The position numbers and the translations under genes are program-made. 64,000 nt of DNA from Halobacteriovoraceae bacterium (GTDB taxonomy: Bacteria > Bdellovibrionota > Bacteriovoracia > Bacteriovoracales > Bacteriovoracaceae): positions 288,001 through 352,000 of the forward strand of contig CAVRCF010000001.1 in the NCBI GenBank assembly GCA_963719505.1. The letters run 5' to 3'. The notes under the pieces are model-generated. The model was not told the origin of the DNA. It ran no database searches and saw nothing but the letters and a program-made list of their open reading frames with translations. Each line of letters starts with the position of its first letter. Positions within the stretch are counted from its first letter, which is position 1. This document shows positions 9,578 through 25,820 of the stretch, in pieces.

Positions 9578-10966
9578 ATGTCTATTAGTGTATTTGATAT
9601 TTACTCCATCGGAATCGGCCCTTCAAGCTCTCACACAGTGGGACCTATGAAAGCTGCCTTTGATTTTTTACAGAGCCTCTCTCAAGAAGAACTTGAAAAA
9701 GTAAAGACGATCAAGGCTGACCTCTATGGCTCTTTAGCTTTAACAGGAAAAGGACACGGAACTGACAAAGCTATTATCTTGGGTTTCATGGGTTATATTC
9801 CAGAGACTATTGATTCAAACAAAACAGAAGACTATATAGCAAGTTGCAAAAAAGATAAAATAATTTTAGTTCAAGCTTTTAATAAAGAGTACAAGATCGC
9901 CTTTAAAGTCAGAGATGATATAAAATTTCACAGACGTGTCTCTTTGCCTTTTCATCCAAATGGGATGGCGTTTGCGGTTTTCGCTTCTGATAACTCACAA
10001 ATTAAAAAGGAAGTTTACTACTCAATTGGTGGTGGATTCATTCTTACAGAAGATGAAGCAAAGATGAGTACAACTACTCAACAGCACACAGAAAAAGTTG
10101 AATTTCCATTTAACTCTGCTGACGAGCTTTTAAAAATTTGTAAAAAGAATAACCTCACTATTCCACAACTTATGATGAGAAATGAACTAACCTGGAGAAA
10201 AGAGGAAGATGTAAAAGAAGGAATCTTAAAATTTTGGAATATCATGGAGGCATGTGTTCAACGTGGCTTTATGAACGAAGGTATACTGCCTGGCGGACTC
10301 AAAGTAAAAAGAAGAGCACCTGCTGTCTATCAAAGCCTAATAACGAACCCAGAAAAAAATCTCTCAGATGTTTTATCCACCATGGACTGGGTTAACCTTT
10401 ATGCTCTTTCGGTAAACGAAGAAAATGCAGCGGGTGGGCAGGTCGTAACCGCTCCCACAAATGGAGCGGCAGGAATAATTCCAGCAGTTCTCCACTACTA
10501 CGTTCGGTTTTCTAACAAATATACTGAACAAGGAGTCATAGACTTTCTTTTAACGGCAGGTGCGATTGCGATGCTTTATAAAAAGAATGCTTCTATAAGT
10601 GGAGCCGAGGTTGGGTGCCAAGGTGAAGTTGGTGTCGCCTGCTCAATGGCTGCAGGAGCTCTCACCCAAGTCCTTGGAGGAACTATTGATCAAGTTGAGA
10701 ATGCTGCTGAAATAGCAATGGAGCACAATCTAGGTCTTACCTGTGACCCCATCGGAGGACTCGTTCAAATTCCTTGTATAGAGAGAAATGCAATGGGTGC
10801 TATAAAAGCTATAAACGCCACAAGAATTGCACTCAAAGGCGATGGAACTCATTTTGTTTCACTGGACAAAGTGATAAGAACGATGAAAAAAACCGGCATG
10901 GATATGAAGAAACATTATAAAGAAACAAGCAAAGGTGGATTAGCAGTCAATATCACGGAGTGCTAA
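9578..10966 (+). CDS. sdaA: L-serine ammonia-lyase (Fe-S dependent)
   Basis: [27 protein letters not shown] and [20 protein letters not shown]. Confidence 0.97.
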
Positions 10967-11151
10967 ACGTATTGTGAAATAACCCTAAGACATATGTAAC
11001 AAACTAAAATTCCAAAAAGACTATAACCTATCTTTGACCAAATCCCCATATCAGGGCTAGGAGTTAAAATCTTTGGAAAGACTCCCCTTCTGGCAAGGAA
11101 GACAAATGCAATATAGAGAATGATCGTAATAGCAAAAAATAGTAATTTCAT
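10963..11151 (-). CDS. Small two-TM membrane protein
   Basis: 62 aa with two hydrophobic segments; last gene of the minus-strand run 13005-10963. Confidence 0.55.
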
Positions 11152-11158
11152 AGATCTA

Positions 11159-11761
11159 TTATGACTTTACTTTCACCCAGTGTCTATTATCGACTTGAAT
11201 AATTCTTCCTTCTCCACCAAAATGTTCTGAAGTTTCTGGCTTTTTATAAATAGCCACAATTCTTTCGGGAAAGTCCCTCTTCTCTTCGAGAGTTATCTCT
11301 GTTAGATCACCGTTTTCGTTATTTGTCAGTGGCGTCCCTGAAGGATATTTTTTATCAACGTAAGCTAAAACCCAACCGGAAACGGCGATGGGAACTTCTC
11401 TTTCAAAACGCCCACTTCCTACGACCATGCCAAAGGTATCGGAGGCAATTCCTATCACACTGAGCTGGCAACGAGAAGAACAGATTTCAGCCCCCTCATA
11501 AGTATCCACATAACACTTACCTGGAATGAGTTCTCCTTTAAGTTGTTGGAAATCTGCATAGTCATTCCAAAGAGCATTCCAGACACCATCTTGAACATGG
11601 AGTTGGGCTGTCCCAGCTGCATTCCAGATACCGAGGTGGTTTCCCGTATCAGATGGGGACCAGTTTCCCGTTCCAGCGGTATAAGTCCCCTTCTCGATCG
11701 CTATCTCTGAGGCACCAGTACCAAAAGTTATCTTATTTAATTTATCAGATAAAATACCCAT
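11159..11761 (-). CDS. Phage tail-fibre-like protein with a peptidase G2-type intramolecular chaperone domain
   Basis: NALWNDYADF followed by VIGIASDTFG...VPIAVSGWVLAYV...GTPL resembles the DYAE-initiated autocleaving chaperone of phi29 gp12-type fibres. Recognised by eye. Confidence 0.6.
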   Translation of the reverse strand: MGILSDKLNKITFGTGASEIAIEKGTYTAGTGNWSPSDTGNHLGIWNAAGTAQLHVQDGVWNALWNDYADFQQLKGELIPGKCYVDTYEGAEICSSRCQLSVIGIASDTFGMVVGSGRFEREVPIAVSGWVLAYVDKKYPSGTPLTNNENGDLTEITLEEKRDFPERIVAIYKKPETSEHFGGEGRIIQVDNRHWVKVKS

Positions 11762-11763
11762 AT

Positions 11764-12990
11764 CTATTTCTCCGCCTTTTTCTCAAGTTCAAGAAGTCTT
11801 TTTTCAAGATCATCTTGTCTTTTATTAAGCTCTTTAATCTGAGTGGACTTTGATTGATTTTCTTTATCTACTTCTTTTAAAGCCTGAAGTAAGACCGCAG
11901 TCAACTGAGGGTACTTCACTACCAGGTAACCATCACTGGCAATACTTACCAGAGATGGAAACTGCTTTTTTATCTCTTGGGCAATAACACCAATATCATC
12001 TTGATCATTTGATCTCCATTTATAAGAGACACCTCGAAGCTTCTTAACCTTAGCAAGAACACCTTTTAAAGTGTGAACATCCCACTTCAAACGTCTGTCT
12101 GACTTAAGCTCCACAGTGTGTGTGTCCTCGATGACTAAGTCGCCATCAATTGTTGTTCCCCCAAATATATTTGTCACTCCATTAATGGTCGTCTGTCCAT
12201 TGACAGCAAAGGTGCCGTCTATTTGAACGGGACCATATAATTCAGCCCCCGTATTATTTGTTGGTGGAGGAAGAACAGGAGTTATAAAAGGCTTCGATAA
12301 GACAGCTCGCCCATTGGGAGCCAAGTCATAGCAGTCACCACCACCATCTCTTCCCGAAGGCAGGAAGGTTCCACCAATACTTTTACATACGTAATCTGCA
12401 ATTGTAGGAAGACTATTACCAGTTGCAGCTGTTGAACACTCAACAATAACGGGATCACCTGAGCCATCATCAATCGTTCTTACATTTAAAAGAATCTTTT
12501 TTGTAATTTCCTTAGCTCCAAAGACATCATCAGTTCTATCGAGGGTGACTTCGAAGTGTGTCCTACCTGTATCACCGGCATTAATATTGGCTGCTGGTGC
12601 CACAGAAGAATCAAGGGCAAAGCTTAAAATTTTCACTCTTGTACTGCCAATCATAGAGGTTGTACCAGCTGTAAAAACTGGTGTTCCATCAGCATTTAAG
12701 ATTTCTGTGATTACTCCCGCTGGAACATTATTTGGGTTGTGAACACCTGATGTTGGAATACTCGCGGGTAAAATTGGACCAAAAGTTTGTCGACAAGCTT
12801 CTTTGTCTCCAAGGACACTTCTAATATTATTGATGATCTCTATTGAATCAAATTTAACTTCTGTGGTTTTGGCACTTTTATTTTGAGTTTCTGACATCTT
12901 CATCATTGCAAGTTGGGCAATTGCCATAATTGCAAGGCTAATCATAACTTGAACAAGTGAAATCCCGGCCTGTGAGAGCTCTTTTTTCAT
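11764..12990 (-). CDS. Type IV prepilin-like protein fused to a C-terminal peptidase S74 tail-fibre chaperone
   Basis: N-terminus MKKELSQAG|ISLVQVMISLAIMAIA is a class III signal. C-terminus SDRRLKWDV...LRGVSYKW...IGVIAQE...FPSLV...VKYPQLTAVLLQALKE plus a coiled coil is a canonical S74 domain. Confidence 0.85.
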   Translation of the reverse strand: MKKELSQAGISLVQVMISLAIMAIAQLAMMKMSETQNKSAKTTEVKFDSIEIINNIRSVLGDKEACRQTFGPILPASIPTSGVHNPNNVPAGVITEILNADGTPVFTAGTTSMIGSTRVKILSFALDSSVAPAANINAGDTGRTHFEVTLDRTDDVFGAKEITKKILLNVRTIDDGSGDPVIVECSTAATGNSLPTIADYVCKSIGGTFLPSGRDGGGDCYDLAPNGRAVLSKPFITPVLPPPTNNTGAELYGPVQIDGTFAVNGQTTINGVTNIFGGTTIDGDLVIEDTHTVELKSDRRLKWDVHTLKGVLAKVKKLRGVSYKWRSNDQDDIGVIAQEIKKQFPSLVSIASDGYLVVKYPQLTAVLLQALKEVDKENQSKSTQIKELNKRQDDLEKRLLELEKKAEK

Positions 12991-13029
12991 AGTTTTAAAC
13001 CTCAATTAATTTTATGGTACAATAATAAC

Positions 13030-13368
13030 ATGGATCATTATAGAAGAAAGTTTTTATTTAAGTCGTTGGTTTTATTAGTAACGCCGACGTTGGCATTTTC
13101 CAAAAAGAAAAAACCTCGCCCAATAAAAGGCTCACTTTTAGAGACTGAAAACATAGTTTCTGACTCAGGCATTTACACATTTCCGTCAAATCCTACTACC
13201 AATCAGGTGGTTCACATAAAAATTGAAAATATTCAAAACAGTAAATTTGCAAAGATTAAGTATCAAGGTGTTCCTATTCTCAACGAAAGAGAAGACTTAG
13301 AACTGGATACCCTCTCAATAGTAAAGTTTGTCTACAAAGACAAAAACCAAGGATGGGTTCTTGCATAA
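13030..13368 (+). CDS. Putative Tat-exported small protein resembling a phage tail-fibre repeat domain
   Basis: YRRKFL twin-arginine motif with a hydrophobic stretch and AFS; the mature part (TFPSNPTTNQVVHI...EDLELDT...KFVYKDKNQGWVL) resembles the TLP..P..GD...DL.LD...LVY....GW fibre repeats. Confidence 0.55.
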   Translation: MDHYRRKFLFKSLVLLVTPTLAFSKKKKPRPIKGSLLETENIVSDSGIYTFPSNPTTNQVVHIKIENIQNSKFAKIKYQGVPILNEREDLELDTLSIVKFVYKDKNQGWVLA

Positions 13369-14895
13369 TTAATTGAGATAGTTTTCTTCAATTAATTCTT
13401 TGAGACTCTTTAATTCTTCATACTGGTTTTCTAAAAGAGTAGAGAAAAATTGCTTTTCTTCTTGAGTATAGAAGTCTTGATCTTGGATAGTCTCTAAAAC
13501 CTTAGGTCGATCTATATCGTTTATAAACTCTAACGCACAAAGAAGAGTACCTCTCTCTTTCAAAAATATGAAGAGCTCCATAACGCTCTGGCATCGATTT
13601 CGAGTGTTACTTATCAAAACTCCACTTCCAAAGTTATTCTCAATAAGCACATCACAACACAGTTCAATCTTTCCCTCTTTATTCCTCTGTCCATTATCAA
13701 AGACTATTCTTATGGACTGTGCATCTCGAAATGAGTTCGCAATCAGATGATCAAAAAGAAGCATTTTTGTGAAAAACGTTGACTCATTCCTTTCAACATA
13801 AAGGTTTAATTCATCAAGAAGAATGTCCATGCTCTTTTCTTGTTTTTCAATTCTGTTTTCACTGAGATAGGCCAGAGGGTCCATCTTATAGATTCTGTCT
13901 ATCCCTCGAATATCATCCGTTAATAAAAATAAAGTCTCATTAAATTTAACCAATTCACTCTTTTGAGTTATAAGACCAAGTTGTGTGGCAATTAAACTTC
14001 CTAAATGTTGGCATTTTATATATTCAATCTTTTGAGTAAAGTCCCTAAAAGGTGTACCAATTTTTTTCAAATGATAGACTCTGTTTGAGGTAGACTCTAC
14101 GACTTGTATATAATCTGTTTCAGCATCAATAGTGTTCTTGAAAAGGGGGGGAATACGAACATAATCTTTCTCTTGTATTCTAATAACAGCTGGAAATTCA
14201 TCATGATAATTTCCAGTTATTGCTTTATGTTTTGGTAGGTTAAGTTTACAGTCCTGATAGTACTCAAGCCATAACTGCGCAAAACGAGGCTCTACCCGAT
14301 TCGTTAGACAAATTCCATTTGTGTAGTGAATACCTACAGGTGGCTCTAGTTGGTTTTGTTCGCCAACAAGATAATTCCAGTTTTTAGGAAGACATCCAAT
14401 ACTTTCAAGGCTTGGAAGCCAAACGAATTGGTGGAGATCTAAACCACTTGCTTCATTAATATATTTAGGGGTTAGACTTTTGCATTCTCCGCAGTTGAAA
14501 AGCATGAGGCTTGACCAATTTTTAAATTGATAATCTTCCTGTAAACAAGCATCTTTTTTCACTTTCTGAAGTGGGACATAGTCGTGCTTACAGACCATTA
14601 AGCTGAATTTTTCATCAGCGAAATCAAAGATTTTAGTTATATCTTGCGTGAAGATAAAGTCACAGTCGCAATAAAGACTCCAACCTTCATAATTTGACAG
14701 GTATGGGACCAAAAAGCGAGTTAATGAAAAATCCGAGGATTCATGCTTCGTCTTTGGTCTAGAATATTCAGGCAACTGTTTCTTCAAAATTGGTGTGATA
14801 GACAACGGTTCTTTTGAGTTTTGAAGAAGGCTCTGTATCAAAGCATGTAATGCTGGTGCTTCAGATTCATCATACCCTATAAAAATTTTTTTCAT
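13369..14895 (-). CDS. GT-A (GT8-like) glycosyltransferase fused to a HipA/PI3-4-kinase-like C-terminal domain
   Basis: KIFIGYD, FSLTRFLVPYL, DCD (DxD), KNWSSLMLFN, WNYLVG and HYT in the N-terminal ~225 aa; LLFDHLIANSFRD in the C-terminal half resembles HipA-like FD..I.N.DR. Confidence 0.7.
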   Translation of the reverse strand: MKKIFIGYDESEAPALHALIQSLLQNSKEPLSITPILKKQLPEYSRPKTKHESSDFSLTRFLVPYLSNYEGWSLYCDCDFIFTQDITKIFDFADEKFSLMVCKHDYVPLQKVKKDACLQEDYQFKNWSSLMLFNCGECKSLTPKYINEASGLDLHQFVWLPSLESIGCLPKNWNYLVGEQNQLEPPVGIHYTNGICLTNRVEPRFAQLWLEYYQDCKLNLPKHKAITGNYHDEFPAVIRIQEKDYVRIPPLFKNTIDAETDYIQVVESTSNRVYHLKKIGTPFRDFTQKIEYIKCQHLGSLIATQLGLITQKSELVKFNETLFLLTDDIRGIDRIYKMDPLAYLSENRIEKQEKSMDILLDELNLYVERNESTFFTKMLLFDHLIANSFRDAQSIRIVFDNGQRNKEGKIELCCDVLIENNFGSGVLISNTRNRCQSVMELFIFLKERGTLLCALEFINDIDRPKVLETIQDQDFYTQEEKQFFSTLLENQYEELKSLKELIEENYLN

Positions 14896-14908
14896 CCTTC
14901 CCTCCATC

Positions 14909-15829
14909 TCAAAGCACTGTATTGTCTATAAGATTTCGATAGCCATTACATGAATAATCAACAGATTTTACCTCCCGGTAATGCTCTGTTAAGCAGTGAC
15001 CCAAGTAATCACAATTCGAACAAAATTGATTAGAACGCACACGATTTTTTTCTTTTTCACACCAAGTTTCATAGTCTTTAAATTTATCTAACTCTAAAAA
15101 GAATTCTTTATCTGAATTATCAAATTCTAAAACTGCGAATTTTCCTCTGGGTGTAATATAAATATGATTATCAGAAAAAGAATTATTAGCTTTTTGTTTA
15201 GCCTGACGAATTAAATCTAAATTTACAAACTGAAAGTTCTTTTTTACTGGGCACTCAATCCACTTTGTGACAAATTTTTCAAATTCTAAATCGCTTACAC
15301 TGAAAGCATTGGCTTGATTAGTAGAATAAGGTTTTATTTCAACTGAGCTGATATTTCCTATGGAGTTAAAGGTTCGAATCATTTGCTCAACATCCTTTTG
15401 TATGAGCTTCTCTGAGGCCAGCATAAGAATAGATACATTTTTGTCGAGACTCAAAATATTTGAAAGAACTTTTTCGGATTTCTCCCTTGCATCAAAGTCA
15501 AACGAAACCGAGAGGCTAACATGCTTGTTTAGAAAAAATGGATTTATGATTGAGAGATTTGTAATAATATTAACGGCAGGGTCTCCAAACTCCAATAAAA
15601 TGTTATCAATTTTCTGAAGATACTCATTTTTTAACAAGGCAATTTCACCGCCGTATAGATCAACTTGTTCTATCTCATAGCCTGCACTTACAATCTCATG
15701 AAACATTCCTGAGAGTAAATTTATATCAAGCTTTTCTTTATCTGCTAGCTCGCTTGTGGTCAAGTAACAGAACTCACAACGAAAATTACACAAATAAGTA
15801 GGATTAAGAGAGACAAAAATTTTCTTCAT
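14909..15829 (-). CDS. Radical SAM enzyme #1 with a C-terminal Cys-rich auxiliary-cluster motif
   Basis: CNFRCEFC (CxxxCxxC), YGGE, and C-terminal CSNCDYLGHC...C; start taken at MKKIFVS. Confidence 0.93.
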   Translation of the reverse strand: MKKIFVSLNPTYLCNFRCEFCYLTTSELADKEKLDINLLSGMFHEIVSAGYEIEQVDLYGGEIALLKNEYLQKIDNILLEFGDPAVNIITNLSIINPFFLNKHVSLSVSFDFDAREKSEKVLSNILSLDKNVSILMLASEKLIQKDVEQMIRTFNSIGNISSVEIKPYSTNQANAFSVSDLEFEKFVTKWIECPVKKNFQFVNLDLIRQAKQKANNSFSDNHIYITPRGKFAVLEFDNSDKEFFLELDKFKDYETWCEKEKNRVRSNQFCSNCDYLGHCLTEHYREVKSVDYSCNGYRNLIDNTVL

Positions 15830-16829
15830 TACTCTCTCTTTGTGCAAGTTTTAATATTTGTGGCTCTAAGGTTTTCATAAGTGAACAGTGCTGTTCGACC
15901 ATATTGTGATTTTTGTGATCACTGATTGTCTTTTTACATCCGTTACAGATATCAAACATTGGGCAGCTTAGGCACTCATTTTTCATACTAAAAATACTTG
16001 GTTCATTTTTAAGGGGCGTGACGAGGTCTCCGCTCATTTCATTTTCAAAGTCAATAGAATACTCTTTATCGTCCCCGAAGGCGCCACAACTATAGTAGTC
16101 CCCGTCCGGTTGCAGGCACCTAATACCAGAGTCACAACTTCTATTTCTTGGACAAACTGTTTTTTTATTTTTGACTGTTTTCATTAACTCTTTACTATTG
16201 AATTCCCAATTAAATAAATTTAAATCTATAATCTCAAGGTATGTTTTATATATTTTCGAAAGTTGATAAGGTTTAGACTCTCTTCCACTAGCCATTGAGT
16301 AATTTAATTTGCACTCAATATTTAAACTCTTAGCCAGTCTTACATTATTAATGGCAAGGTGTTCATCCTCATCCGTAACAACACTTATAAAGTCAGGGTA
16401 GTAGCCAAGATAAGATTTAAATTTTTTCATAACATCGAGAAAAATTTCTTCAGTATAGATTTTTTTCTTACTAATCCTCCTCCCATTTCCGTAGTTAAAG
16501 GATGTAGCAATATTCACTCTTGGGTGACGAAAGAGATCTATCCATTTTTCAGGTTTTTTATAAAAGTCCCACAAGTTACTGGTAAAACTTATAGACGTTC
16601 TCATTTCTTTTTTATCTAAAAAATTGATAATCTTCCAATAATAGTCAGGGGAAACCATAAGCGGCTCTCCTCCGTTAACTATAATGGTATTGGTTTGCGG
16701 AAACCGATCTAAAAACTGATTTATTCTGCTTAAATCAAGTAAAGTTTTTTTGTCCTCGGCCAGCGTCGGTGAGCTACAAAAGGTGCAGGCAAAATCACAA
16801 ATGTCGGTTGGCTTTATAATTAAATCCAT
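15804..16829 (-). CDS. Radical SAM enzyme #2 with a SPASM-like domain
   Basis: IKPTDICDFACTFC, GGEPL, and CPRNRSC...YYSCG...CLSCPMFDICNGC...C. Confidence 0.95.
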   Translation of the reverse strand: MDLIIKPTDICDFACTFCSSPTLAEDKKTLLDLSRINQFLDRFPQTNTIIVNGGEPLMVSPDYYWKIINFLDKKEMRTSISFTSNLWDFYKKPEKWIDLFRHPRVNIATSFNYGNGRRISKKKIYTEEIFLDVMKKFKSYLGYYPDFISVVTDEDEHLAINNVRLAKSLNIECKLNYSMASGRESKPYQLSKIYKTYLEIIDLNLFNWEFNSKELMKTVKNKKTVCPRNRSCDSGIRCLQPDGDYYSCGAFGDDKEYSIDFENEMSGDLVTPLKNEPSIFSMKNECLSCPMFDICNGCKKTISDHKNHNMVEQHCSLMKTLEPQILKLAQRESNEENFCLS

Positions 16830-16833
16830 AGCA

Positions 16834-17451
16834 TTACTCTACTTTTATTTTAATATCAATTCCAATGGATATTCTATCAGTTCTTGACGCAAGTGGGTGA
16901 ACCCAGTGATTTAGATAGGATGGAAAGATTAATAGCATTCTCTCCTCTGGCTTTATATTTACTTTCTCCATATTCCCAAAAGGAAGAGACATCCCCATGC
17001 CGGGAACTGGATTAAGGAATTCTATGGTCCCACCTATCCCCTTTGTTTGTGGAATTTGGCAGAAATATGTACAAGTAAAAGTTGATTGGGGATGAACATG
17101 AGGCACAACATAGTCTCTATCTTTTTGTACAAGGGCCCATCCTGTCTTTTTTATCTCAGTATTATTTACCATCGAATCATCGATCACTGGGTCTTCATGA
17201 GCTGAGAATTCATCTTCCTTTGTCCAAAAAGAGTAGAGTACATTAAAGTGCTCATTAATGATTGCATTAAGTTTTTCTATACACTTTGGTGGTTTAACAA
17301 GAAGATCGTGTTTTGAGATCCAAGCTTTAGACTTATCCTTCGACTCAAGAGCCTCTTTCATCAAAAGGTACTCCTTAATCTCTTCGTTTAAATAAGCTGG
17401 CACAATCTCTTTTTCAATAAGAATAGCAGTCGGAAAAAAAGTTTTAATCAT
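16834..17451 (-). CDS. Putative Fe(II)/2-oxoglutarate oxygenase, TIGR02466-like
   Basis: FPTAI, W...PHVHP, GGTIEF.NP and LLIFPSYLNHWV.P...RISI. Confidence 0.8.
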   Translation of the reverse strand: MIKTFFPTAILIEKEIVPAYLNEEIKEYLLMKEALESKDKSKAWISKHDLLVKPPKCIEKLNAIINEHFNVLYSFWTKEDEFSAHEDPVIDDSMVNNTEIKKTGWALVQKDRDYVVPHVHPQSTFTCTYFCQIPQTKGIGGTIEFLNPVPGMGMSLPFGNMEKVNIKPEERMLLIFPSYLNHWVHPLASRTDRISIGIDIKIKVE

Positions 17452-17452
17452 C

Positions 17453-18478
17453 TCAAGTGACCTCGTTATAAAATTCTTTCAGAAAACAATCTACCGTATT
17501 CCTCTGCCTAGAGGCAAAGTCAGCTGCTACGAAGCAATACAATCCACATCGGTCTAGGTTTTCACAAGATAAGCAACCTTGTGAACTTAGGAACCGTTCA
17601 GCCATCTCACCAACTGTATCTTTATTTGGTAAACCAAGGAAACTCTTAGGGTTGTAATCTAGATACTGACAATTAGAGATAGAGTTGTCAGCAGCGATTA
17701 ATATCCTATTTTCTGAACAGCATTGAATATCATTCGTCTCGTTTTCTAAATATCCTTTTATAGGGTGAGATTCAGGATAATATTTTGCCAGATAAAGTAG
17801 GGCTTGCTTACAGTCTAAATCGCTTGGATGAAAAATATTACTATTTTTTAAGTCCGGAACATACCAATCAAAATTAACCGGAAAGTTTTCATAACAATAG
17901 TCAAAAAGGTGATCCCTTTTTTTGAGCATCGATTGAATCGATAATTTGTGAAGTGTTACAGATATTGAGGCTATATAGTCTGAAAAAATATCTAAGTTAT
18001 CTCGAAAAACAGCTTTTTGTCTTTCGTCCCAACTCCTACCTGCAAAGTCAAAAGATGTTTGCAAGGTTATATTAATTTTATGTTCTCGAAATCCATCGAG
18101 GAACGCAAGAACCCTATCTGTTTTTTCGAATATTAAATTCGATGTGAAACTAAATACAACTTTTTTATTTTCTAGTAATGAATTTATTTTAAAAACAAAT
18201 CTTTTATATTCATTGAACCAACTGTCACCATACTGGTCTTGAAAAAGCTCTCCCCCCATCAAGTTAACAGAAAAACTGTCCCAAGCGTTTCTCTTTTTTG
18301 CTATGAATCTTTCAACAAGTAGATATTTTTCATCAATCGTTACTCCTTCAACCCCTTTCATGCTGTGGTCTTGACAACAGAAAGAGCATGAAAGATTACA
18401 GTCTTCAAACAAGTGAATTTCTATCTCAATTGTACTTGAGTGTTTCTTTGATAGAATTTTATTTGTTACATATGACAT
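17453..18478 (-). CDS. Radical SAM enzyme #3, paralog of #4
   Basis: LFEDCNLSCSFCCQDH, NLMGGELF, TSFDFAGR and CLSCENLDRCGLYCF...C; start taken at MSYVTNK. Confidence 0.93.
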   Translation of the reverse strand: MSYVTNKILSKKHSSTIEIEIHLFEDCNLSCSFCCQDHSMKGVEGVTIDEKYLLVERFIAKKRNAWDSFSVNLMGGELFQDQYGDSWFNEYKRFVFKINSLLENKKVVFSFTSNLIFEKTDRVLAFLDGFREHKINITLQTSFDFAGRSWDERQKAVFRDNLDIFSDYIASISVTLHKLSIQSMLKKRDHLFDYCYENFPVNFDWYVPDLKNSNIFHPSDLDCKQALLYLAKYYPESHPIKGYLENETNDIQCCSENRILIAADNSISNCQYLDYNPKSFLGLPNKDTVGEMAERFLSSQGCLSCENLDRCGLYCFVAADFASRQRNTVDCFLKEFYNEVT

Positions 18479-18479
18479 A

Positions 18480-18998
18480 TTATTTTTCCAACTCAGGTGC
18501 AAAGAAGTCAAAGCTCAATAATCTTCTCTCCTGACTTGTCGCAACAACTCGATGTTCAAAGTTTTTCGACTGATTTAAGAGAACTAACATTTCTGGCTTT
18601 GGATAAACCTCACAAAAAGTGTCAAGACTTCTCACTTGCAAAGATCCGCCGCTATCTTTGTCCATATCATCTAAATAGAAAAGGCATGTTAAGTTAAACT
18701 TTTTGCTTTTTAAGTAATCGTTATGCCAGTTGTGTGAGTTTTGATCAATGCCTTTCCAAAGGCCAAAAGAATGGGGCTTTATATCCTTGAAATGTAATTT
18801 TAAATAGTTATCAAGTAAATAATCTTGAACTTTTTCAAGGCCAGATCTTTCAAGAGCACTTATATTTTTCTGAGAAAAACTTTCGCGTGCATTTGTAAAG
18901 ACACAACTTTTTAAATCGATCAATTGTGAAATTGAACTATCTTGAGCACAGTAGAGTCCCTCTATAATAAATTGGTTAAAATTTTCTATAAAGTTCAT
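18480..18998 (-). CDS. Fe(II)/2-oxoglutarate oxygenase, prolyl-hydroxylase-like
   Basis: WHND (HxD), LFYLDD...GGSL and FEHRV...RRLLSF. Confidence 0.85.
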   Translation of the reverse strand: MNFIENFNQFIIEGLYCAQDSSISQLIDLKSCVFTNARESFSQKNISALERSGLEKVQDYLLDNYLKLHFKDIKPHSFGLWKGIDQNSHNWHNDYLKSKKFNLTCLFYLDDMDKDSGGSLQVRSLDTFCEVYPKPEMLVLLNQSKNFEHRVVATSQERRLLSFDFFAPELEK

Positions 18999-19020
18999 AA
19001 ATCCGCATCAATCCTTTTAC

Positions 19021-19048
19021 TTGTAAATGCTGTTATCTTGCCTATAAT
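19021..19048 (+). promoter_or_regulatory. Putative sigma-70 promoter for the Cys-His repeat gene
   Basis: TTGTAA-N16-TATAAT in the divergent intergenic region. Confidence 0.45.
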
Positions 19049-19097
19049 AATAGTATTAACCAGTTCTTAATGTAAATAAAAGTAAGGAATGAACCAT

Positions 19098-19646
19098 ATG
19101 CCAGCTCCTACGAAAGCTTATATCATTAGTCGCTTCAACTCAGTGGTAGCTTCACTACCTTCACGTAACAACGCAACCTATCATGCAGGAAACTTTCCCA
19201 ATATCGCACAACGGACAAGACTTGGAGCTTTTCCACTTGGCTCGAGAACAGAGCCAAATAAAACTGTTGCTGATATAGGTGTTACTGGAATGATGGCGAC
19301 AAATATATTTGAAATACTACACAACCTTGCGATGGAACTAACACGCGTCAGAAAAGCGAGGAATGTGCACTTAGTTGACAACAGATCTGACAATGGGGCT
19401 GTTCATGCAGTTGTAGGCTCACCCACACTAACGGCTCTACATCCAAGGCATGCTCAGTACTTTGACTTTCCAGGAAGTCATAAAAACGTCGGAGACCAAA
19501 TAAATCTTTCAGAAATTGAATCTTTTCTAAGTAGTCTTAGAACACGAGTACAGTACATAAGAAGCAGTGATGATCATTTATTTGAAATCGTCTCTTGCCA
19601 CTCAAGTTGTCACTCTAGTTGCCACGGTTCAAGAGCGAGAAGGTAG
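19098..19646 (+). CDS. Candidate modified substrate/precursor protein with a C-terminal triple Cys-His repeat (SCHSSCHSSCHGSRARR)
   Basis: Repeat encoded at 19593-19643; these are the only three Cys in the protein. AGGA at 19085-19088 favours the ATG at 19098. It is the first gene of the rightward operon in the middle of the radical SAM cluster. Confidence 0.7.
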   Translation: MPAPTKAYIISRFNSVVASLPSRNNATYHAGNFPNIAQRTRLGAFPLGSRTEPNKTVADIGVTGMMATNIFEILHNLAMELTRVRKARNVHLVDNRSDNGAVHAVVGSPTLTALHPRHAQYFDFPGSHKNVGDQINLSEIESFLSSLRTRVQYIRSSDDHLFEIVSCHSSCHSSCHGSRARR

Positions 19647-19649
19647 AAA

Positions 19650-20378
19650 ATGCAAATGACTCACACAACAGCACCTTTATCAATGGAGCTTGTAAAAGAA
19701 CAATTTGAAAACAAAGAAATGACTTTTGTTATCAACTACAAAGAAAGTGAGCTTCAAGGAAAAAACCTTCTTGTCTATATTTCAAATCTTGAGCTCAATT
19801 GTGAAATTGATTTTCATTCGTGCTCTTTTGACAAAAGAGAAGAACTTATAAAAGAGTTTCTAAATGTTAATTGTATCAATAATATTAATTCACTTCGCCT
19901 CAATGCGGCTCATATTATTTTAGAGTTTATGGGTGTTGATTTCTCTGAAGAGATTCTCAACCCAGCTTTCTCAAAAAGTGAGATTCAAATTTTTATAAAA
20001 AATAATAAAGAAACTCTAGAAAAATGGAAAACATTTCTCCAATCAACTATGGTTTATAACCTTACATCTGTTAGTGCCGTTAATGAGGAATACAAGTTCG
20101 ATCAGATTTTCGAGACAGTTGATGACCCTTTTTATATCGGAAGAAATGTCGTCACACTCCTCTCTATTCCGACTTTTATGGAAAGGGTATACTCGATACC
20201 AGTGGAACAGGAGCTTTTTTATTTCAAGCAACAGTTTGAGGAGTGTATGTTTAAAGGCGAAAGTCTCTTTTATTATTTTTGTAACGAAGCAAACACTCCC
20301 TTTCTCATCTACAATATGCTCTTGACGGGTGATATGAGCATAGAAGAGCTTGAAGCAATTAAAACCCTAAAAGGCTAA
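19650..20378 (+). CDS. Hypothetical protein of the radical SAM cluster
   Basis: 242-aa ORF 3 nt after the Cys-His repeat gene; no recognisable motif. Confidence 0.75.
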   Translation: MQMTHTTAPLSMELVKEQFENKEMTFVINYKESELQGKNLLVYISNLELNCEIDFHSCSFDKREELIKEFLNVNCINNINSLRLNAAHIILEFMGVDFSEEILNPAFSKSEIQIFIKNNKETLEKWKTFLQSTMVYNLTSVSAVNEEYKFDQIFETVDDPFYIGRNVVTLLSIPTFMERVYSIPVEQELFYFKQQFEECMFKGESLFYYFCNEANTPFLIYNMLLTGDMSIEELEAIKTLKG

Positions 20379-20379
20379 A

Positions 20380-21474
20380 ATGTTCAATCTTTTTAACGGT
20401 ATCTATCTAGATCTGGCAGATCGGTTTACATCTAAATACGACTACCTAACTGTTTCGACGACCAAAACCTTTCACCCCGCTGCAAAATACATAGAACAAG
20501 ACTTTGGTGAATCTCCCGCTTTTGATGACTATCTTGAAGAGAATTTTGATGCAGATGAAGATCGCTTTTGGCAATCACTTATAAACAAAGAAAAAAAGAA
20601 AAGCTTTGTCATCTATACTGACAGTGAGCTCTACCACCGGCTTCAACTTACCTTTTTTAAGAATATCTTTCCAAAAAGTGAAATAGATCAACTGCATAGA
20701 CTCTACAATTTCTATGTTTACAACGAACATATTCGCTCTAAGTTACAAGAAAAAAGAGGGGGAGAAAACCTAAGAGTCGATACGAAACACCTTCCTCACT
20801 ATACAGAAGAGGAATTTGAGCAGAAGTTGAAACAGCTTCCGAAACATAAATCTCTCTACTCCATGGATAAAGCATCACTTTGTTTTGAATTTTTGTTCTT
20901 ACAATATGTCATAGAAAGAGACTGCGTTTATTCTGCATATTTTTTAAAAAGAGTAAAAGACTTGTCTTGGAAAAATTGGTTCGAAGAAATTGGAGAGATC
21001 AGAACAGAAATCATTAACGGATTCTATCAACTCGACAAGATTTTAGATGATTCAAAGTTTAGTCTCGATGAAAACCTAGACTCTTTTCTTGCTAAAAATA
21101 ATCTAGAATGGATCTCTGACCTGAATCTTTACGGAGTTAACCCCGATTACTTCAAAAGAACATACAAGCCCGATGACTTTCTTAAGATTATCAATGCAAA
21201 AGATAAAATTGAATTTTCTTCAGATCAAGACTTCTCGGATCGCCTCACTAATAACTTCAAGACGAAAATGGAATACCTTTTCAGCGAGCGCTATGAAGAT
21301 CTTCTTTTGCTAGATGTGAAAGATTCTATTGGATGCTCCTTTACCAAAGGACAAATGCAAGCCAAAGTTAACACCTTACTTTTAAGTTACTTGTATTCAG
21401 TGGTCGATGGAAGGAATAGTTTTTTTGGTGAGACTCTCACTCTATCTGAAACAAAGTTGAGTCAAGATGAGTAA
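20380..21474 (+). CDS. Hypothetical protein of the radical SAM cluster
   Basis: 364-aa ORF tightly coupled to both neighbours; no recognisable motif. Confidence 0.75.
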   Translation: MFNLFNGIYLDLADRFTSKYDYLTVSTTKTFHPAAKYIEQDFGESPAFDDYLEENFDADEDRFWQSLINKEKKKSFVIYTDSELYHRLQLTFFKNIFPKSEIDQLHRLYNFYVYNEHIRSKLQEKRGGENLRVDTKHLPHYTEEEFEQKLKQLPKHKSLYSMDKASLCFEFLFLQYVIERDCVYSAYFLKRVKDLSWKNWFEEIGEIRTEIINGFYQLDKILDDSKFSLDENLDSFLAKNNLEWISDLNLYGVNPDYFKRTYKPDDFLKIINAKDKIEFSSDQDFSDRLTNNFKTKMEYLFSERYEDLLLLDVKDSIGCSFTKGQMQAKVNTLLLSYLYSVVDGRNSFFGETLTLSETKLSQDE

Positions 21475-22471
21475 TCCTGTTATCCTACAAAAAAAATCTG
21501 GAGATGGTGAGCTATTCGTCAATCTTTTTGAATGGTGCAACTTGAATTGCGATTTTTGTTGGCAGGATCATAATGACTGGAGTGGAATTGAAACCATTGT
21601 AGAAAGAAGCGTTGATATATTAAGCGCTATACGCAGTAGCAAAGAACCTCATTTTATTGTTAACCTTATGGGCGGCGAGCTTTTTGCCGATAAAATCCCA
21701 GATCAAACAATTTATGATTATTACAATATGGTTGAGGCTGTCTTCACGCAGTTGCCACCGAAAAAAACTATTGAAGTAAACTGGGTCACGAACCTTGTCT
21801 TCACAAAACTAGAAAGACTACAAGAGCTAGTCAATAAAACTCGAGCACTTGGCATTCAAAGCCGTATAACCACCAGCTTTGATTTTACTGGTAGATTTAG
21901 AAAAGCTTCGCGTCTTCTTTTTGAAAATAATATTAGAAAACTTGGATCAGAGGTGGGGACTATTTCCGTTGTCCTTACAAAACCTAATATAGAGAAGATG
22001 ATAAAAAACGATGATTCTTTATTCAAGGAACTTTACGCCCAAGGATTCTATTTTTATTTTGATTACTACTCACCAGAGAATAATTTCAAAGAGATGCTTC
22101 CCACCGATACACAACTTCAAGAGGGCTTATTATTTCTTCTTAGAAACTATCCAAATGTGAATCCCATTCAATCTTGGATTAAAAATGAATCAAACCCCAT
22201 GAGTTGTCAGTCCTCTATCGTCATAGACAAAGATGGTGTTAAAGGCAAATGTAAATCACTCGTTCCAGAAAGCATTAAAGTTGTATTAAAAAGTGAAAGT
22301 CACGACAATACCAATGCTGTTATGGAAGATCGTTTTAGTAACAAATACGACTGCATTAGTTGTGAATTCTACAAACGCTGTGGCATGGGATGTTTTTTGC
22401 AGCATGACTTCGATGGTTTTGAAACTCTTAGTGAATGTCTTTATAAAGAAATTTTTAGGAATATAACTTAA
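21467..22471 (+). CDS. Radical SAM enzyme #4, paralog of #3
   Basis: LFEWCNLNCDFCWQDH, NLMGGELF, TSFDFTGR and CISCEFYKRCGMGCF...C. Confidence 0.93.
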   Translation: MSNPVILQKKSGDGELFVNLFEWCNLNCDFCWQDHNDWSGIETIVERSVDILSAIRSSKEPHFIVNLMGGELFADKIPDQTIYDYYNMVEAVFTQLPPKKTIEVNWVTNLVFTKLERLQELVNKTRALGIQSRITTSFDFTGRFRKASRLLFENNIRKLGSEVGTISVVLTKPNIEKMIKNDDSLFKELYAQGFYFYFDYYSPENNFKEMLPTDTQLQEGLLFLLRNYPNVNPIQSWIKNESNPMSCQSSIVIDKDGVKGKCKSLVPESIKVVLKSESHDNTNAVMEDRFSNKYDCISCEFYKRCGMGCFLQHDFDGFETLSECLYKEIFRNIT

Positions 22472-23073
22472 TGTTTAATAAAGAGGCCGTCGAAATTCAA
22501 TATAACTCAAATGGCACCGTCGAAGAATCCTTTCGAACTCGTTCAAAAGTTGGAGAAGAGCTCTTAACACAGGCTCTAGCTCGCTGCTGTCAATTCGCGA
22601 TAGATAAAAAAGAAATAGAACTTATCTCCTATGCACCAAATGATGATTTGTCCGTCAAAGACCAAGCAATAGCACTCGTTTTTAACTCCGCAATTAGACA
22701 GAGTTCCCACCTAAGTGACTACCACGTCATAAAAGTAATGAATAATAATGAGAGTGTCTTAAAATGCTATGACAATGATTTTTGGAGACACCCAAACATA
22801 CCTCTACCAGTAAACGCCAGGCTTGCCCAACAGTTCGGCATTGGATTTTATCCTGATAACGAGGAGATTGACATCTATGACATGTACTTTTTTCATCACT
22901 CCCTTGAGGCGGTAGAAGATCACTTTAACCTTAATCTTAACCTACCAGATTTTGTTAAGGCTTATGGCTTCGGCCTCTATGGTGTTAGTTACAACTCAAA
23001 TTTAGAGGCTTTAAAATTGAAGAGATATTTTTACCCAAGTGACCCGCAGCTCAATAATCCTCAAGACCTATAG
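22471..23073 (+). CDS. Hypothetical protein of the radical SAM cluster
   Basis: 200-aa ORF with a TAATG stop/start overlap with radical SAM #4. Confidence 0.7.
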   Translation: MFNKEAVEIQYNSNGTVEESFRTRSKVGEELLTQALARCCQFAIDKKEIELISYAPNDDLSVKDQAIALVFNSAIRQSSHLSDYHVIKVMNNNESVLKCYDNDFWRHPNIPLPVNARLAQQFGIGFYPDNEEIDIYDMYFFHHSLEAVEDHFNLNLNLPDFVKAYGFGLYGVSYNSNLEALKLKRYFYPSDPQLNNPQDL

Positions 23074-23673
23074 CAATCGAACTCCGACACTAAGTGTATA
23101 TCGATCTTTTTCAAAAGAATGAAAAGGTGTAGTTTTATGTTGAATATTCGATTTGCTTAAGTCCATCACGATAACATCAAAGTCAGCTGGAAGAAAACTA
23201 ACCTCTAGTCCTGTTGATTTGTCTCTAAAGGAAATGATGCCACCATCCTTTTTTTCGAGTGCAATTGGAATATGATAAATTAAAATCGTAAAGTCATCAG
23301 TAAATCTATCCCTACCATCGTTATCTGAATGCCACTCATTTCCAGCAGAACCATTCCAAACAGTTACACCCGATATTGTGTATCTTTTTAGGCCTATAAA
23401 TGTTGACGCATGTTTCTTTAAAAATTCCTCTACCCACCCTATAAAAGATGCATCTAGGTTTTTATCCTGAATAGAATCTAAGTCTGATTTATCCATTAGC
23501 GCTGCTAACTCAAAAGTTGATACAGGCACAGACTTCAGGTTAAACAAAGGAGATGATATCCACACGGAGGGATTAAAGAGTCCCCTAAATTTGCCTCTAT
23601 CCTCCAAGGGTAACCTGTAACGTGAATGTGCTAAATTTTTTACATCTTCAATAAGTTCCATCTTGTTTCCCAT
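23068..23673 (-). CDS. Fe(II)/2-oxoglutarate oxygenase
   Basis: WHSD (HxD), ILIY...DGGIISF and IQHKTTP...RYTLS; start shortened to MGNKMEL to avoid overlap with the divergent gene. Confidence 0.8.
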   Translation of the reverse strand: MGNKMELIEDVKNLAHSRYRLPLEDRGKFRGLFNPSVWISSPLFNLKSVPVSTFELAALMDKSDLDSIQDKNLDASFIGWVEEFLKKHASTFIGLKRYTISGVTVWNGSAGNEWHSDNDGRDRFTDDFTILIYHIPIALEKKDGGIISFRDKSTGLEVSFLPADFDVIVMDLSKSNIQHKTTPFHSFEKDRYTLSVGVRLL

Positions 23674-23729
23674 GTGTCCTATTATTGCATGAATTAGGGA
23701 ATATTGATATATTCTAAAAAAAGAGGGAT

Positions 23730-24806
23730 ATGCGCTTAGCCAAAGATATACAAATTTATTTAAAAACAACTGAGACCTGTAATCTTAACTGTAGTCATTG
23801 TTTCACAAGTGGAAGCAAAGGAAAAAAGATTTTCTTTAACCCCATAAAAACAGCGTCCTTTATTAAAAGTTTAAATAAGTCTGAGAATCTAAATTCGATG
23901 AGGATACTCTTTCATGGGGGAGAGCCTCTTTTAGCTCCAATAAAAGATCTTTATAATTTCTACGAAGAACTTCAAGACATCAAAAATATATCATTTGGTA
24001 TTCAAACAAACTTAGTATACAAGCTTAATCCCAAGAGGTTAAATTTTTTTAAAGATGTTTTAAAGCTAGAGGGGATTGGAACTTCATGGGATCCCAATAT
24101 TCGTTTTGGTTCAAATGGGTTAACAACAAAGGAACATGACCTTCACCTTTGGGAAACAAATATTAAAACTCTGGTAGATCTGGGTGCAGAAATAACCCTA
24201 ATGGTATCTCTATCAAGAGACGTAGTTGAATATTATGAGCCCAAGCAAATAATTGATTATGCTATTGAGCTTGGAATAAAGTATATACTTTTTGAAAGAA
24301 TAACGTTCGATGGGAATTCACAGGATAATGAAAATGTTCTTCCTTCCAACAAGAATTTAGACTTATGGATGCTTACTATGTACAAGCAAACACTAGAAGA
24401 TGATCGATTCTTAAAAATTGGAAATATGTTCCTAGACGAAATTGCTAGAAGCTATCTTCACGGAAACCACGTAGCGAATAGATGTAGAGGGTGTGAGCAA
24501 AAACTTATCACCATCAACGCCGATGGCACCCTCTCTGGTTGCCCCAACTCTGCCCCAACAAGTATTTGGGGTAGAATAGAAAAAGACCCAACCACCTTTA
24601 TTGCTTCACCTAAACGCACAGAGGCAATATGCAAAGAACAAATACGAAATTCCGTTTGCCTTACTTGTGAAGTAAATGACTTATGCAATGGCGACTGTTA
24701 CAAATTAAAATGGGATAAAGATATTTGTTCAGCTCCAAAAAGCTTATTTCAATTTCTCAAGACAACCGAAGGCTCTAAAAATTGCTCTAAGGTTCTCCTA
24801 ATATGA
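23730..24806 (+). CDS. Radical SAM enzyme #5 with a SPASM domain
   Basis: LKTTETCNLNCSHC, FHGGEPLL, QTN, and C..C...INADGTLSGC...CLTCEVNDLCNGDC...C. Confidence 0.95.
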   Translation: MRLAKDIQIYLKTTETCNLNCSHCFTSGSKGKKIFFNPIKTASFIKSLNKSENLNSMRILFHGGEPLLAPIKDLYNFYEELQDIKNISFGIQTNLVYKLNPKRLNFFKDVLKLEGIGTSWDPNIRFGSNGLTTKEHDLHLWETNIKTLVDLGAEITLMVSLSRDVVEYYEPKQIIDYAIELGIKYILFERITFDGNSQDNENVLPSNKNLDLWMLTMYKQTLEDDRFLKIGNMFLDEIARSYLHGNHVANRCRGCEQKLITINADGTLSGCPNSAPTSIWGRIEKDPTTFIASPKRTEAICKEQIRNSVCLTCEVNDLCNGDCYKLKWDKDICSAPKSLFQFLKTTEGSKNCSKVLLI

Positions 24807-25255
24807 AAGAGTGGAAGTTAAGACAACAAATTTTTTCTCGTATTTTTTCAGATAAAAACCTAGGGGATAATCTCGACGAACAAGTTATCATTGAAGAGTT
24901 TGACCAGGAATCTATTCTTAAAAGAGCTTTAGAATATCCTTTTTCGAACAATGCGATTTGCCACTATCCAGGCAAGTCTTTTGCTATTGCTATTATCTTT
25001 TCTCTTTTGCTAGAAAAGCACTTCGGCGATTCTAGATTTAGCTATCTCTCAGACCCTAACCTTTTTATGGGAGAGGACCCTTACTTCATACCCTATACTG
25101 ATAGTAGGGATCTTTACGATAAGATCCTGGAAAGTTTTCCGGTAGAGTCGATAGATAGACCTGAGTCTTATGGACAAGACTTCCAAAAGACAGTGAATTA
25201 TTTTATGATGGAGTACTTGTTTCATGATGACACAAAAATGTTCGCCCCTTCTTAG
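24803..25255 (+). CDS. Hypothetical protein of the radical SAM cluster
   Basis: 150 aa; ATGA overlap with radical SAM #5. Confidence 0.7.
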   Translation: MKEWKLRQQIFSRIFSDKNLGDNLDEQVIIEEFDQESILKRALEYPFSNNAICHYPGKSFAIAIIFSLLLEKHFGDSRFSYLSDPNLFMGEDPYFIPYTDSRDLYDKILESFPVESIDRPESYGQDFQKTVNYFMMEYLFHDDTKMFAPS

Positions 25256-25784
25256 TCCTAACCTCATTGATCAAATATTTTCTGATTCATGGCTCTATTC
25301 TGTTAATAGTTTTTTTATAATTGAGCCTCAGACAGGTTCTTATGATGAAAGGTTATTGAATGATAAAACTATGGTAGAGCAGGCTCAGCTGATCAAAGCA
25401 CAGTTTCTCTTAGGCTCAACGATAATAGTTAAAAACATCGAATCTTTTACTACCGAATTGAAGCGAAAATGTGAAGTCCTCGGCAAGGGGTCTATGGTTG
25501 ATGCACATATGTATTTGAATAAATTTAAAGAGTCTCTGTCTTTTGATTTCCACACTGACGAGACCGACGTTATCATCCACTTGGCTTATGGATTCAAAAA
25601 AATTGAAATTATCAAAGATGACATTGTTTCAACCCATACTCTTGCAGCTGGGGATGAATTATTCATTCCTAAAGGCTTAAAACACCGAGCGATTAATCTA
25701 GCACCATCTTGCTCTTTTAGTTTCGGTATCAAGGAAGATTCATTTTTTATTCCGGGAGGAATCACAAAGGATGACTTTTTTTAG
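25224..25784 (+). CDS. Cupin/JmjC-like oxygenase
   Basis: AHMY...SFDFHTDETDVII....GFK and LAAGDELFIPKGLKHRA, giving an HxD...H facial triad as in Cupin_4/ROX-type proteins. Confidence 0.8.
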   Translation: MMTQKCSPLLSPNLIDQIFSDSWLYSVNSFFIIEPQTGSYDERLLNDKTMVEQAQLIKAQFLLGSTIIVKNIESFTTELKRKCEVLGKGSMVDAHMYLNKFKESLSFDFHTDETDVIIHLAYGFKKIEIIKDDIVSTHTLAAGDELFIPKGLKHRAINLAPSCSFSFGIKEDSFFIPGGITKDDFF

Positions 25785-25788
25785 GTAT

Positions 25789-25820
25789 TAAAAAGCTTCT
25801 CCTAAAAGAGAAGCTTTTTA
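25789..25820. terminator. Bidirectional intrinsic terminator closing the radical SAM block
   Basis: TAAAAAGCTTCTC-ctaaaa-GAGAAGCTTTTTA, a perfect 13-bp inverted repeat between convergent genes. Confidence 0.85.

Follow-up and report, generated by a model that had tools for sequence, protein, structure and literature searches.

A genomic island of a Halobacteriovoraceae bacterium joins a radical SAM cassette shared with large phages to fibre-derived genes that may export and mount its product

Precedents for the maturation of whole proteins by radical S-adenosylmethionine (SAM) enzymes are provided by CrpA/CrpC of Methanococcus voltae (PMC13692751) and by HxsA of the HXS system (HxsABCD; PMC13128918). 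In a predatory lineage, the MAT fibres of Bdellovibrio bacteriovorus have been proposed to act as prey adhesins (PMC10769870). Enzymes of the type considered here have also been recorded in phages, being listed without a role in PMC11898562, PMC8066314 and PMC5468394 (the last concerning RP12/RP31, whose cluster was not compared here), while radical SAM proteins of Campylobacter phages were read as metabolic (PMC2853527) and the word 'radical' is absent from PMC7824862. The locus analysed here is a genomic island within a stretch of 64,000 nucleotides (the window; positions 288,001 to 352,000 of contig CAVRCF010000001.1, assembly GCA_963719505.1) from a Halobacteriovoraceae bacterium, which is presumably predatory, judging from its family membership. 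Eighteen island genes and one open reading frame (ORF) of 62 amino acids (aa) lie between sdaA (9578-10966) and the gene at 25821-26720. The favoured interpretation, to which a probability of about 0.55 is assigned, is that this inserted island is shared with large phages, that its radical SAM enzymes cross-link the Cys-His tail of an island protein, and that three fibre-derived genes serve to export this product and to display it, as a surface fibre or at the tip of a pilus. It draws on gene content, phage homology, an empty insertion site, gene linkage, folds and signals, and on a homologue reported in virions (PMC6102473).

The gene at 19089-19646 (forward strand), which the first-pass annotation had passed over, is likely the centrepiece of the island and the substrate of the radical SAM enzymes. 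It encodes a 185-aa protein without an export signal, in which a folded body of ~168-170 aa is followed by the C-terminal sequence CHSSCHSSCHGSRARR, comprising three Cys-His-x-x repeats and then RxRR. Across 38 aligned phage and bacterial homologues, the tail is near-invariant and the body of ~170 aa is conserved. The homologues were located via neighbouring enzymes, a tblastn search with the protein against 50,697 phage records having returned no match, and the Cys-His-tail protein is present in 48 of the 84 viral loci mapped (many of which are cut short) and in 20 of the 237 Bacteriovoracaceae genomes surveyed. Fold matches of the structural model (predicted local distance difference test, pLDDT, 80) are limited to uncharacterised phage proteins, among them one from Atu_ph07 that is as long as gp170; a clear match in the Protein Data Bank (PDB) was not obtained (Foldseek, none at E<=0.001; VIA, best Z 4.1), which is no proof of a new fold. 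The protein contains three H-x-S triplets and matches neither a Pfam domain nor a solved fold. The tail varies in places: in one genus (L044, L060, L062, L064, L066) it is reduced to two Cys-His units with a proline run between them, and in G010 (L005) a single Cys precedes His-Ser-Ser repeats.

The tail protein has the appearance of a structural component. Its homologue in the jumbo phage Atu_ph07, gp170 (31.89 kDa, a mass confirmed by calculation), is a virion protein detected with 8 unique peptides and 35% coverage, whereas the cluster enzymes gp164, 165, 168 and 171, as well as gp169, are missing from the virion protein table (PMC6102473, Table S5). According to the same data, gp170 was most abundant in gel band 1, the top of the gel, after treatment with sodium dodecyl sulfate (SDS) at 95 C, and proteins of 117-139 kDa peaked in bands 1-2. 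This distribution is compatible with an oligomer that is cross-linked or very stable, without proving one.

Five radical SAM genes are present, and the best match of every one is the phage family phrog_1802. They encode enzyme 1 (14909-15847, reverse strand; phrog_1802 E 2e-38), the SPASM-type enzyme 2 (15804-16829, reverse), whose gene is the best conserved of all (identity of 43-63% among phage and predator copies), enzyme 3 (17453-18511, reverse), a paralogue of enzyme 4 with 33% identity, and the SPASM-type enzymes 4 (21467-22471, forward; assigned by family scans) and 5 (23730-24806, forward). All five contain CxxxCxxC and 5-10 C-terminal Cys residues, with a SPASM-like Cys run in four. 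Their TIGR04085 matches are near or below the cut-off, and none reaches the cut-off of a curated maturase model.

The first-pass annotation had supposed that the enzymes have phage-associated relatives, and close phage homologues were indeed found. Homologues of enzyme 5 with 36-43% identity occur in 15 jumbo-phage records, and a profile scan identified 263 viral stretches with enzyme 2. In Atu_ph07, RSL2, DT01 and Phosso, the four named phages examined, the gene order is a JmjC gene, enzyme 5 and then, directly 3' of the latter, a gene for a Cys-His-tail protein of 178-306 aa; these clusters sit behind large genes, with an annotation as virion proteins in three of these phages. In unrooted trees, with the viral rows taken as the best 80 of 263 and thinned at 88% identity, the enzymes of the window group with predator copies, their sister being the relative G110, and most phage rows group apart; two other genes require four label changes on such trees. 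Repeated exchange between phages and predators, combined with movement among predators, fits these trees, which, being unrooted, give no direction.

The synteny of sdaA and the 25821 gene was compared in relatives, and the block is an insertion at a site that is otherwise empty in three of the four relatives checked (G002, G003 and G110), where the two genes are only 84-230 bp apart; in the fourth (G001), other genes occupy the site. The 62-aa ORF (10963-11151), at which the island had first been taken to begin, is also present in the empty site of G002, and the start of the island is therefore placed near 11152. In G110, the site is empty, yet this genome carries the most similar cassette, in near-identical order, at a different locus. 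The composition of the island is host-like (GC 0.360 versus 0.368 for the host; tetranucleotide distance at the 42nd percentile), and neither GC content nor codon use, the comparison of which had been suggested as a check, sets it apart as foreign. As stated in the first-pass annotation, families of capsid, terminase, portal and integrase proteins have no match in the block, nor have they any in the 44 other ORFs of the window. The genes that would define a prophage, tailocin or gene transfer agent (capsid, terminase, portal, tube/sheath and integrase) were not found within the window; at the scale of the whole genome (G000, 84% complete), the search covered Terminase_6N, which gave no match.

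The three genes at the left of the island are fibre-derived, and a phage origin is the simpler reading, because their domains sit inside long phage proteins. The gene at 11159-11761 (reverse) encodes a 200-aa protein without an export signal, consisting of a beta-rich N-terminus of ~65 aa and a beta-tulip domain. In the structural model, the stretch of residues 68-199 matches the C-terminal fragment of phi29 gp12 (3gqh; Z 10.3, root-mean-square deviation 3.1, 104 residues aligned) and, tied with it, capsid cement and head-fibre base proteins (Z 8-10.6); Foldseek returned rows at E>0.01 only, and tblastn against the 50,697 phage records gave no match. In all 120 longer homologues listed, some of which bear collagen or tail-collar domains, the beta-tulip domain is C-terminal, and on 11 viral contigs it ends a protein of 279-2157 aa, which is flanked by radical SAM genes in 7 cases. 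A twelfth viral locus, L206, was set aside as a duplicate of a chromosomal copy; the genes of this IMG/VR 'viral' record are those of the island in the G135 chromosome, so that such islands can be filed as viruses. The WNDxAD motif of the beta-tulip protein aligns weakly with gp12 residues ~690-695 (E 0.34), and the cleavage motif ends in Asp in 101 of the 102 homologues in which it could be scored, compared with Asp-x-Ala-Glu in the gp12 type. Since Asp replaces the Glu at gp12 position 695, which we take to be catalytic, self-cleavage of the beta-tulip protein is uncertain.

The next gene (11764-12990, reverse; probable start ATG 12990) encodes a 408-aa protein with a predicted pilin-type signal and a C-terminal S74 autocleaving chaperone (PF13884 E 9e-14, above cut-off) in which SDxxxK is intact as SDRRLK; tail-fibre PHROGs are matched as well, and this is the only S74 domain found in G000. 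Its N-terminus, G|ISLVQ, yields weak GspI/PilV matches, the canonical form being G|F-x-x-x-E and a hydrophobic helix, and two of the three pilin/S74 proteins of relatives tested pass the PF07963 (N_methyl) cut-off. The third gene (13030-13368, forward) encodes a 112-aa protein with a predicted twin-arginine translocation (Tat) signal (RRKFL and an h-region) and a single copy of a phage tail-fibre proximal-subunit repeat. RRx[FLIV][LIVFM] occurs within the first 25 aa of 101 of 112 short homologues, 98 of which have an h-region, and the repeat is present 2-10 times in 38 long homologues (9 of the 12 scanned match phrog_972, the tail-fibre proximal subunit). It was also observed in other longer proteins (L221:215-1096; L220:10065-12350; L195:10357-11025), one of the instances being at the C-terminal end of a pilin-like G069 protein. 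No meaningful match to the Tat profile turned up among PDB sequences, and the Atlas yielded only unnamed viral clusters for the Tat domain. The earlier claim that the fibre parts carry pilin and Tat signals therefore stands for two of the proteins but not for the product of 11159-11761. Genes of the TatC and A24 prepilin-peptidase families are present in G000.

In the family survey, enzyme 2, representing the cassette, was found in 25 of the 237 genomes, the beta-tulip gene in 31 (across 14 genera) and the Tat gene in 32; the Tat gene accompanies the beta-tulip gene in all 31 genomes, with one extra Tat-domain match among the other 206. Linkage of fibre and radical SAM genes, which the first-pass annotation expected to recur in other genomes, is seen in most relatives: 20 of the 24 with enzyme 2 have the beta-tulip gene, and 19 have it beside the cassette: in 17 of the 24 regions it lies 0.45-7.8 kb from a cassette enzyme, and G209 and G233 add two instances on contigs other than those of the regions. 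Of the four relatives that lack it, one is a phage-like contig of 9.5 kb, and the others are assemblies broken into 170-420 contigs. A pilin-type S74 gene accompanies the beta-tulip gene in 17 of 24 relatives, with the gene order shuffled. Kin are not independent, so these counts do not amount to a statistical test. Ten genomes have the beta-tulip gene without this cassette; in two it lies at a contig end, and in eight a different radical SAM cluster is found nearby, with a Cys-rich protein seen in seven of the eight. The pairing of the same fibre-derived kit with two unrelated sets of enzymes and substrates is the strongest sign that the kit serves the matured protein.

The second cluster was observed beside the same beta-tulip and Tat genes at L188, L190-L194, L197 and L222 (G016, G018, G142, G143, G144, G148, G260 and G208). 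Its Cys-rich protein has 150-199 aa, starts with M(A/S)CSG and has the Cys-rich tail at its end. In G208 (L222:10964-11838), this protein ends with an S74-type SDKRLK motif, and the next small ORF encodes the rest of an S74-like domain; this split chaperone marks the substrate of the second type as a fibre part.

A mechanism in four steps may be proposed. In the cytoplasm, the radical SAM/SPASM enzymes, assisted by oxygenases and accessory proteins, would modify the (CHxx)3 tail, most likely with links of the Cys thioether and/or His type, which may join different chains. The beta-tulip protein would trimerise and either form a base for the modified protein or chaperone its folding, a role that the same domain would have at the ends of phage fibres. 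The protein with the Tat signal would cross the inner membrane and may carry folded, signal-less partners with it. Finally, the pilin/S74 protein would be cut by prepilin peptidase, trimerise, shed its S74 domain and become part of a type IV pilus or pseudopilus, on which the assembly would be displayed. Attachment to prey or to surfaces would be its most likely use.

Several observations weigh against such a cross-linked and exported fibre. The beta-tulip profile matches none of the 84 viral loci of this cassette type, and in such phages the domain was recognised, by eye, only as a distant look-alike at the end of Atu_ph07 gp176. The Tat profile was built from genes beside beta-tulip genes, which renders 16 of its matches circular. 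In six of the eight genomes with the second cluster, no pilin/S74 gene is adjacent, the Tat and pilin/S74 pair lies apart from the cassette in G096 and G097, and S74 genes without the cassette are widespread in the family (158 of 237). The pilin of the window has Gln rather than the usual Glu at +5, and the export route is assumed, because the substrate and the beta-tulip protein lack signal peptides. With respect to the virion data, gp170 smears over bands 1-9, and band 1 is also the peak of two other proteins of 32-36 kDa with few peptides (PMC6102473). About 87% of the family genomes searched are without the kit, which is therefore not needed for predation. The apparent stability of gp170 has to be read with caution as well, as fibres can resist SDS without covalent links. 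For enzyme 2, a single predator clade was rejected (26 versus 29 rows; approximately unbiased test, p-AU 0.005; quick LG+G4 tree with long branches). The first-pass proposal that a predator co-opted a phage receptor-binding module is thereby retained in part: the island is shared with phages and contains fibre-derived genes, but the predator copies do not form one clade, and no receptor-binding domain was identified.

Among the alternatives, an anti-phage device is unlikely, though less so than the other explanations considered. The matured protein would work as HxsA does, from the periplasm or the cell surface, and block DNA entry or act as a decoy against large phages that carry the same module. 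The His-x-Ser triplets and basic residues of the tail, the patchy, island-like distribution and the existence of a radical-SAM-matured, exported effector in HXS (PMC13128918) agree with this idea; on the other hand, HxsC scores 37.5 bits at best against a cut-off of 267.9, no HxsA, HxsB or HxsD model matches at E<=0.05 among the matches listed, PADLOC yields only generic viperin and 2-oxoglutarate (2OG) superfamily matches, and the module is mainly phage-borne and virion-associated. Slightly less likely is a ribosomally synthesised and post-translationally modified peptide or metallophore, in which the ~170-aa body would be a large leader, the His/Cys-rich tail, once modified, would be cleaved from it and secreted as a peptide with metal-binding or antibacterial activity, and the fibre genes would be co-inherited. 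A C-terminal Cys/His core, several oxygenases and SPASM-type enzymes whose best, sub-threshold matches are peptide maturases would suit such a product. However, the family scans of the block turned up neither a protease nor an ABC exporter, the body is folded as well as conserved, the phage homologue is found in virions at 35% coverage (PMC6102473), and the linkage to the fibre kit withstands both shuffling and cassette exchange.

It is also improbable that decoration of the pilin/S74 fibre itself, or of a glycan on the surface, is the task of the enzymes, with the Cys-His protein acting as a cofactor or carrier. Fibre decoration had been the role assigned in the first-pass annotation, and the presence of a GT8-like glycosyltransferase and four oxygenases, as well as the usual adjacency of the pilin/S74 gene, would accord with it. 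The glycosyltransferase (13369-14907, reverse; PF01501 E 0.005, phrog_28018 E 2e-35) is, however, not the small GT-A enzyme that had been described but a 512-aa protein with an unassigned C-terminal half, and it is accessory rather than core, being present in the regions of 5 of 24 relatives and in 1 of 84 viral loci. Moreover, an S74 domain match occurs in 10 of the 84 viral loci, compared with 48 for the Cys-His protein, and clusters of the second type often lack pilin/S74; the likeliest target of the enzymes is the Cys-His-tail protein within their own cluster. A decaying prophage remnant without host function is least credible of all: phage-type genes do occupy a site that is empty in relatives, but all frames are intact, the N-termini of the phage proteins are replaced by host-type signals, the composition is that of the host, the kit is kept across 14 genera, and no other phage genes lie nearby. 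The exported, radical SAM-modified fibre is thus preferred over these alternatives.

The remaining genes of the cassette include the oxygenases, three of which have family matches: a TIGR02466-like 2OG-Fe(II) oxygenase (16834-17451, reverse; PF13759 E 3e-15, TIGR02466 under cut-off), a second 2OG-Fe(II) oxygenase (18480-18998, reverse; PF13640 E 3e-7) and a JmjC/cupin oxygenase (25224-25784, forward; PF08007 E 8e-8; 70 of 84 viral loci). The fourth, a probable 2OG-Fe(II) oxygenase (23068-23769, reverse) whose true start is probably downstream of the one listed, was assigned by an HxD motif without a family match; the radical SAM and oxygenase content reported in the first-pass annotation is accordingly upheld. 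Four further proteins lack a functional assignment, and three of them match PHROGs. The conserved accessory protein at 19650-20378 (forward; phrog_20767 E 7e-58), usually encoded close 3' of the substrate gene, is present in 56 of 84 viral loci; an Atlas lookup gave no lead to its function, and a single-sequence viral scan was empty. The other conserved accessory proteins are encoded at 20380-21474 (forward; phrog_36207 E 3e-9) and 24803-25255 (forward; phrog_20737 E 2e-27; 67 of 84 viral loci), and the protein encoded at 22471-23073 (forward) has homologues in Atu_ph07, Phosso and some relatives.

The right edge of the island is marked by a hairpin (25789-25820, no strand assigned) with a 13-bp stem, an A run before it and a U run after it. 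Its description as a strong bidirectional terminator holds insofar as the hairpin is real (z -5.6) and flanked on both sides by the A and U runs, which makes it a likely bidirectional terminator, but no more than four of its pairs are G-C, and the terminator scan did not list it. The zero-base junction between 13368 and 13369, which had been cited as a link between the fibre and enzyme genes, is real as well, but the genes meet tail-to-tail (13030-13368 forward, 13369-14907 reverse), and the junction is therefore no sign of co-transcription. Promoter counts were at chance level (46 versus 49.8). A gene for an Mrp/NUBPL Fe-S carrier (window 27646-28800), probably resident and relevant for Fe-S supply, lies 1.9 kb to the right of the island. 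Elsewhere in the window (6412-8169 and 57777-59165), the electron transfer flavoprotein (ETF) beta gene is split between two ORFs and the N-termini of ETF alpha and urocanase are missing, and a prepilin peptidase match in the genome (G000:C1:495505-495813) contains internal stops. These split or shortened frames are probably assembly indels, and single-base details in G000 need care.

A broader possibility, put forward tentatively and with less assurance than the interpretation above, is that predatory Bdellovibrionota build a new kind of appendage, in which a type IV pilus bears at its tip a phage virion protein, covalently stapled or polymerised through radical SAM reactions at its Cys-His tail, and in which an export kit of three genes (pilin/S74, Tat repeat and beta-tulip) accepts at least two interchangeable phage cassettes of enzymes and substrate. 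Phage and predator would then grip bacterial cells with the same chemically hardened fibre. Neither the cassette nor the kit was found described in the literature searched, which largely did not extend to subscription journals. The results name a candidate substrate for the unexplained radical SAM sets of large phages and tie it to virions via published proteomics, and they indicate that bacteria keep a block shared with phages and equipped with host export signals. Cys/His cross-linking on a full-length protein becomes a testable chemistry, with a possible export route for a folded, modified fibre, and the locus may represent a structure for the recognition of prey or surfaces, outside the MAT family, in the Bacteriovoracaceae, which have been little studied.

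When compared with the systems described to date, the pilin/S74 protein shares with the MAT fibres a resemblance to phage fibres, the C-terminal SDxxxK S74 chaperone, which here scores above the PF13884 cut-off, and occurrence in a predatory lineage. MAT proteins, as described in PMC10769870, have ~1,000 aa, a signal peptide and a conserved 130-aa domain rich in beta structure, whereas the window protein is much shorter and has a pilin-type N-terminus; the word 'pilin' does not occur in the main text of that paper. This N-terminus resembles that of a pilin-like G000 protein without S74 (E 9e-9), which argues against MAT membership. Unlike MAT, the S74 protein of the window is also accompanied by radical SAM enzymes and by a Tat and a beta-tulip protein. 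In HXS, a whole protein with HxS repeats is matured by radical SAM enzymes in the cytoplasm and exported (PMC13128918); in the island, by contrast, five different enzymes are encoded, all far below the HxsC cut-off, a Cys precedes each His, three H-x-S triplets are present without the peptidoglycan-binding domain of the HXS effector, and the module resides mostly on phages. A SPASM radical SAM enzyme beside a protein with regularly spaced Cys residues is common to the island, CrpA/CrpC and the ranthipeptide/CXXX-repeat systems (NF047865, TIGR04115), and the thioether cross-linking of a large protein by CrpA/CrpC is the nearest chemical precedent (PMC13692751). The island enzymes score far below the respective cut-offs (PapB, 57 versus 340 bits; TIGR04115, 18 versus 350 bits), and the tail has only three Cys residues, each followed by His, in a phage and fibre context. 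The fold of residues 66-200 of the beta-tulip protein is shared with the C-terminal chaperone of phi29 gp12 and with cement and head-fibre base proteins (3gqh, 6qyy), the domain being a stand-alone gene in the window. In the jumbo phages Atu_ph07, Phosso, RSL2/RSF1/FLC6/S13 and DT01, the clusters are without pilin and Tat genes and follow large virion genes, and they share with the island the same core genes, at 36-58% enzyme identity, together with the Cys-His-tail protein.

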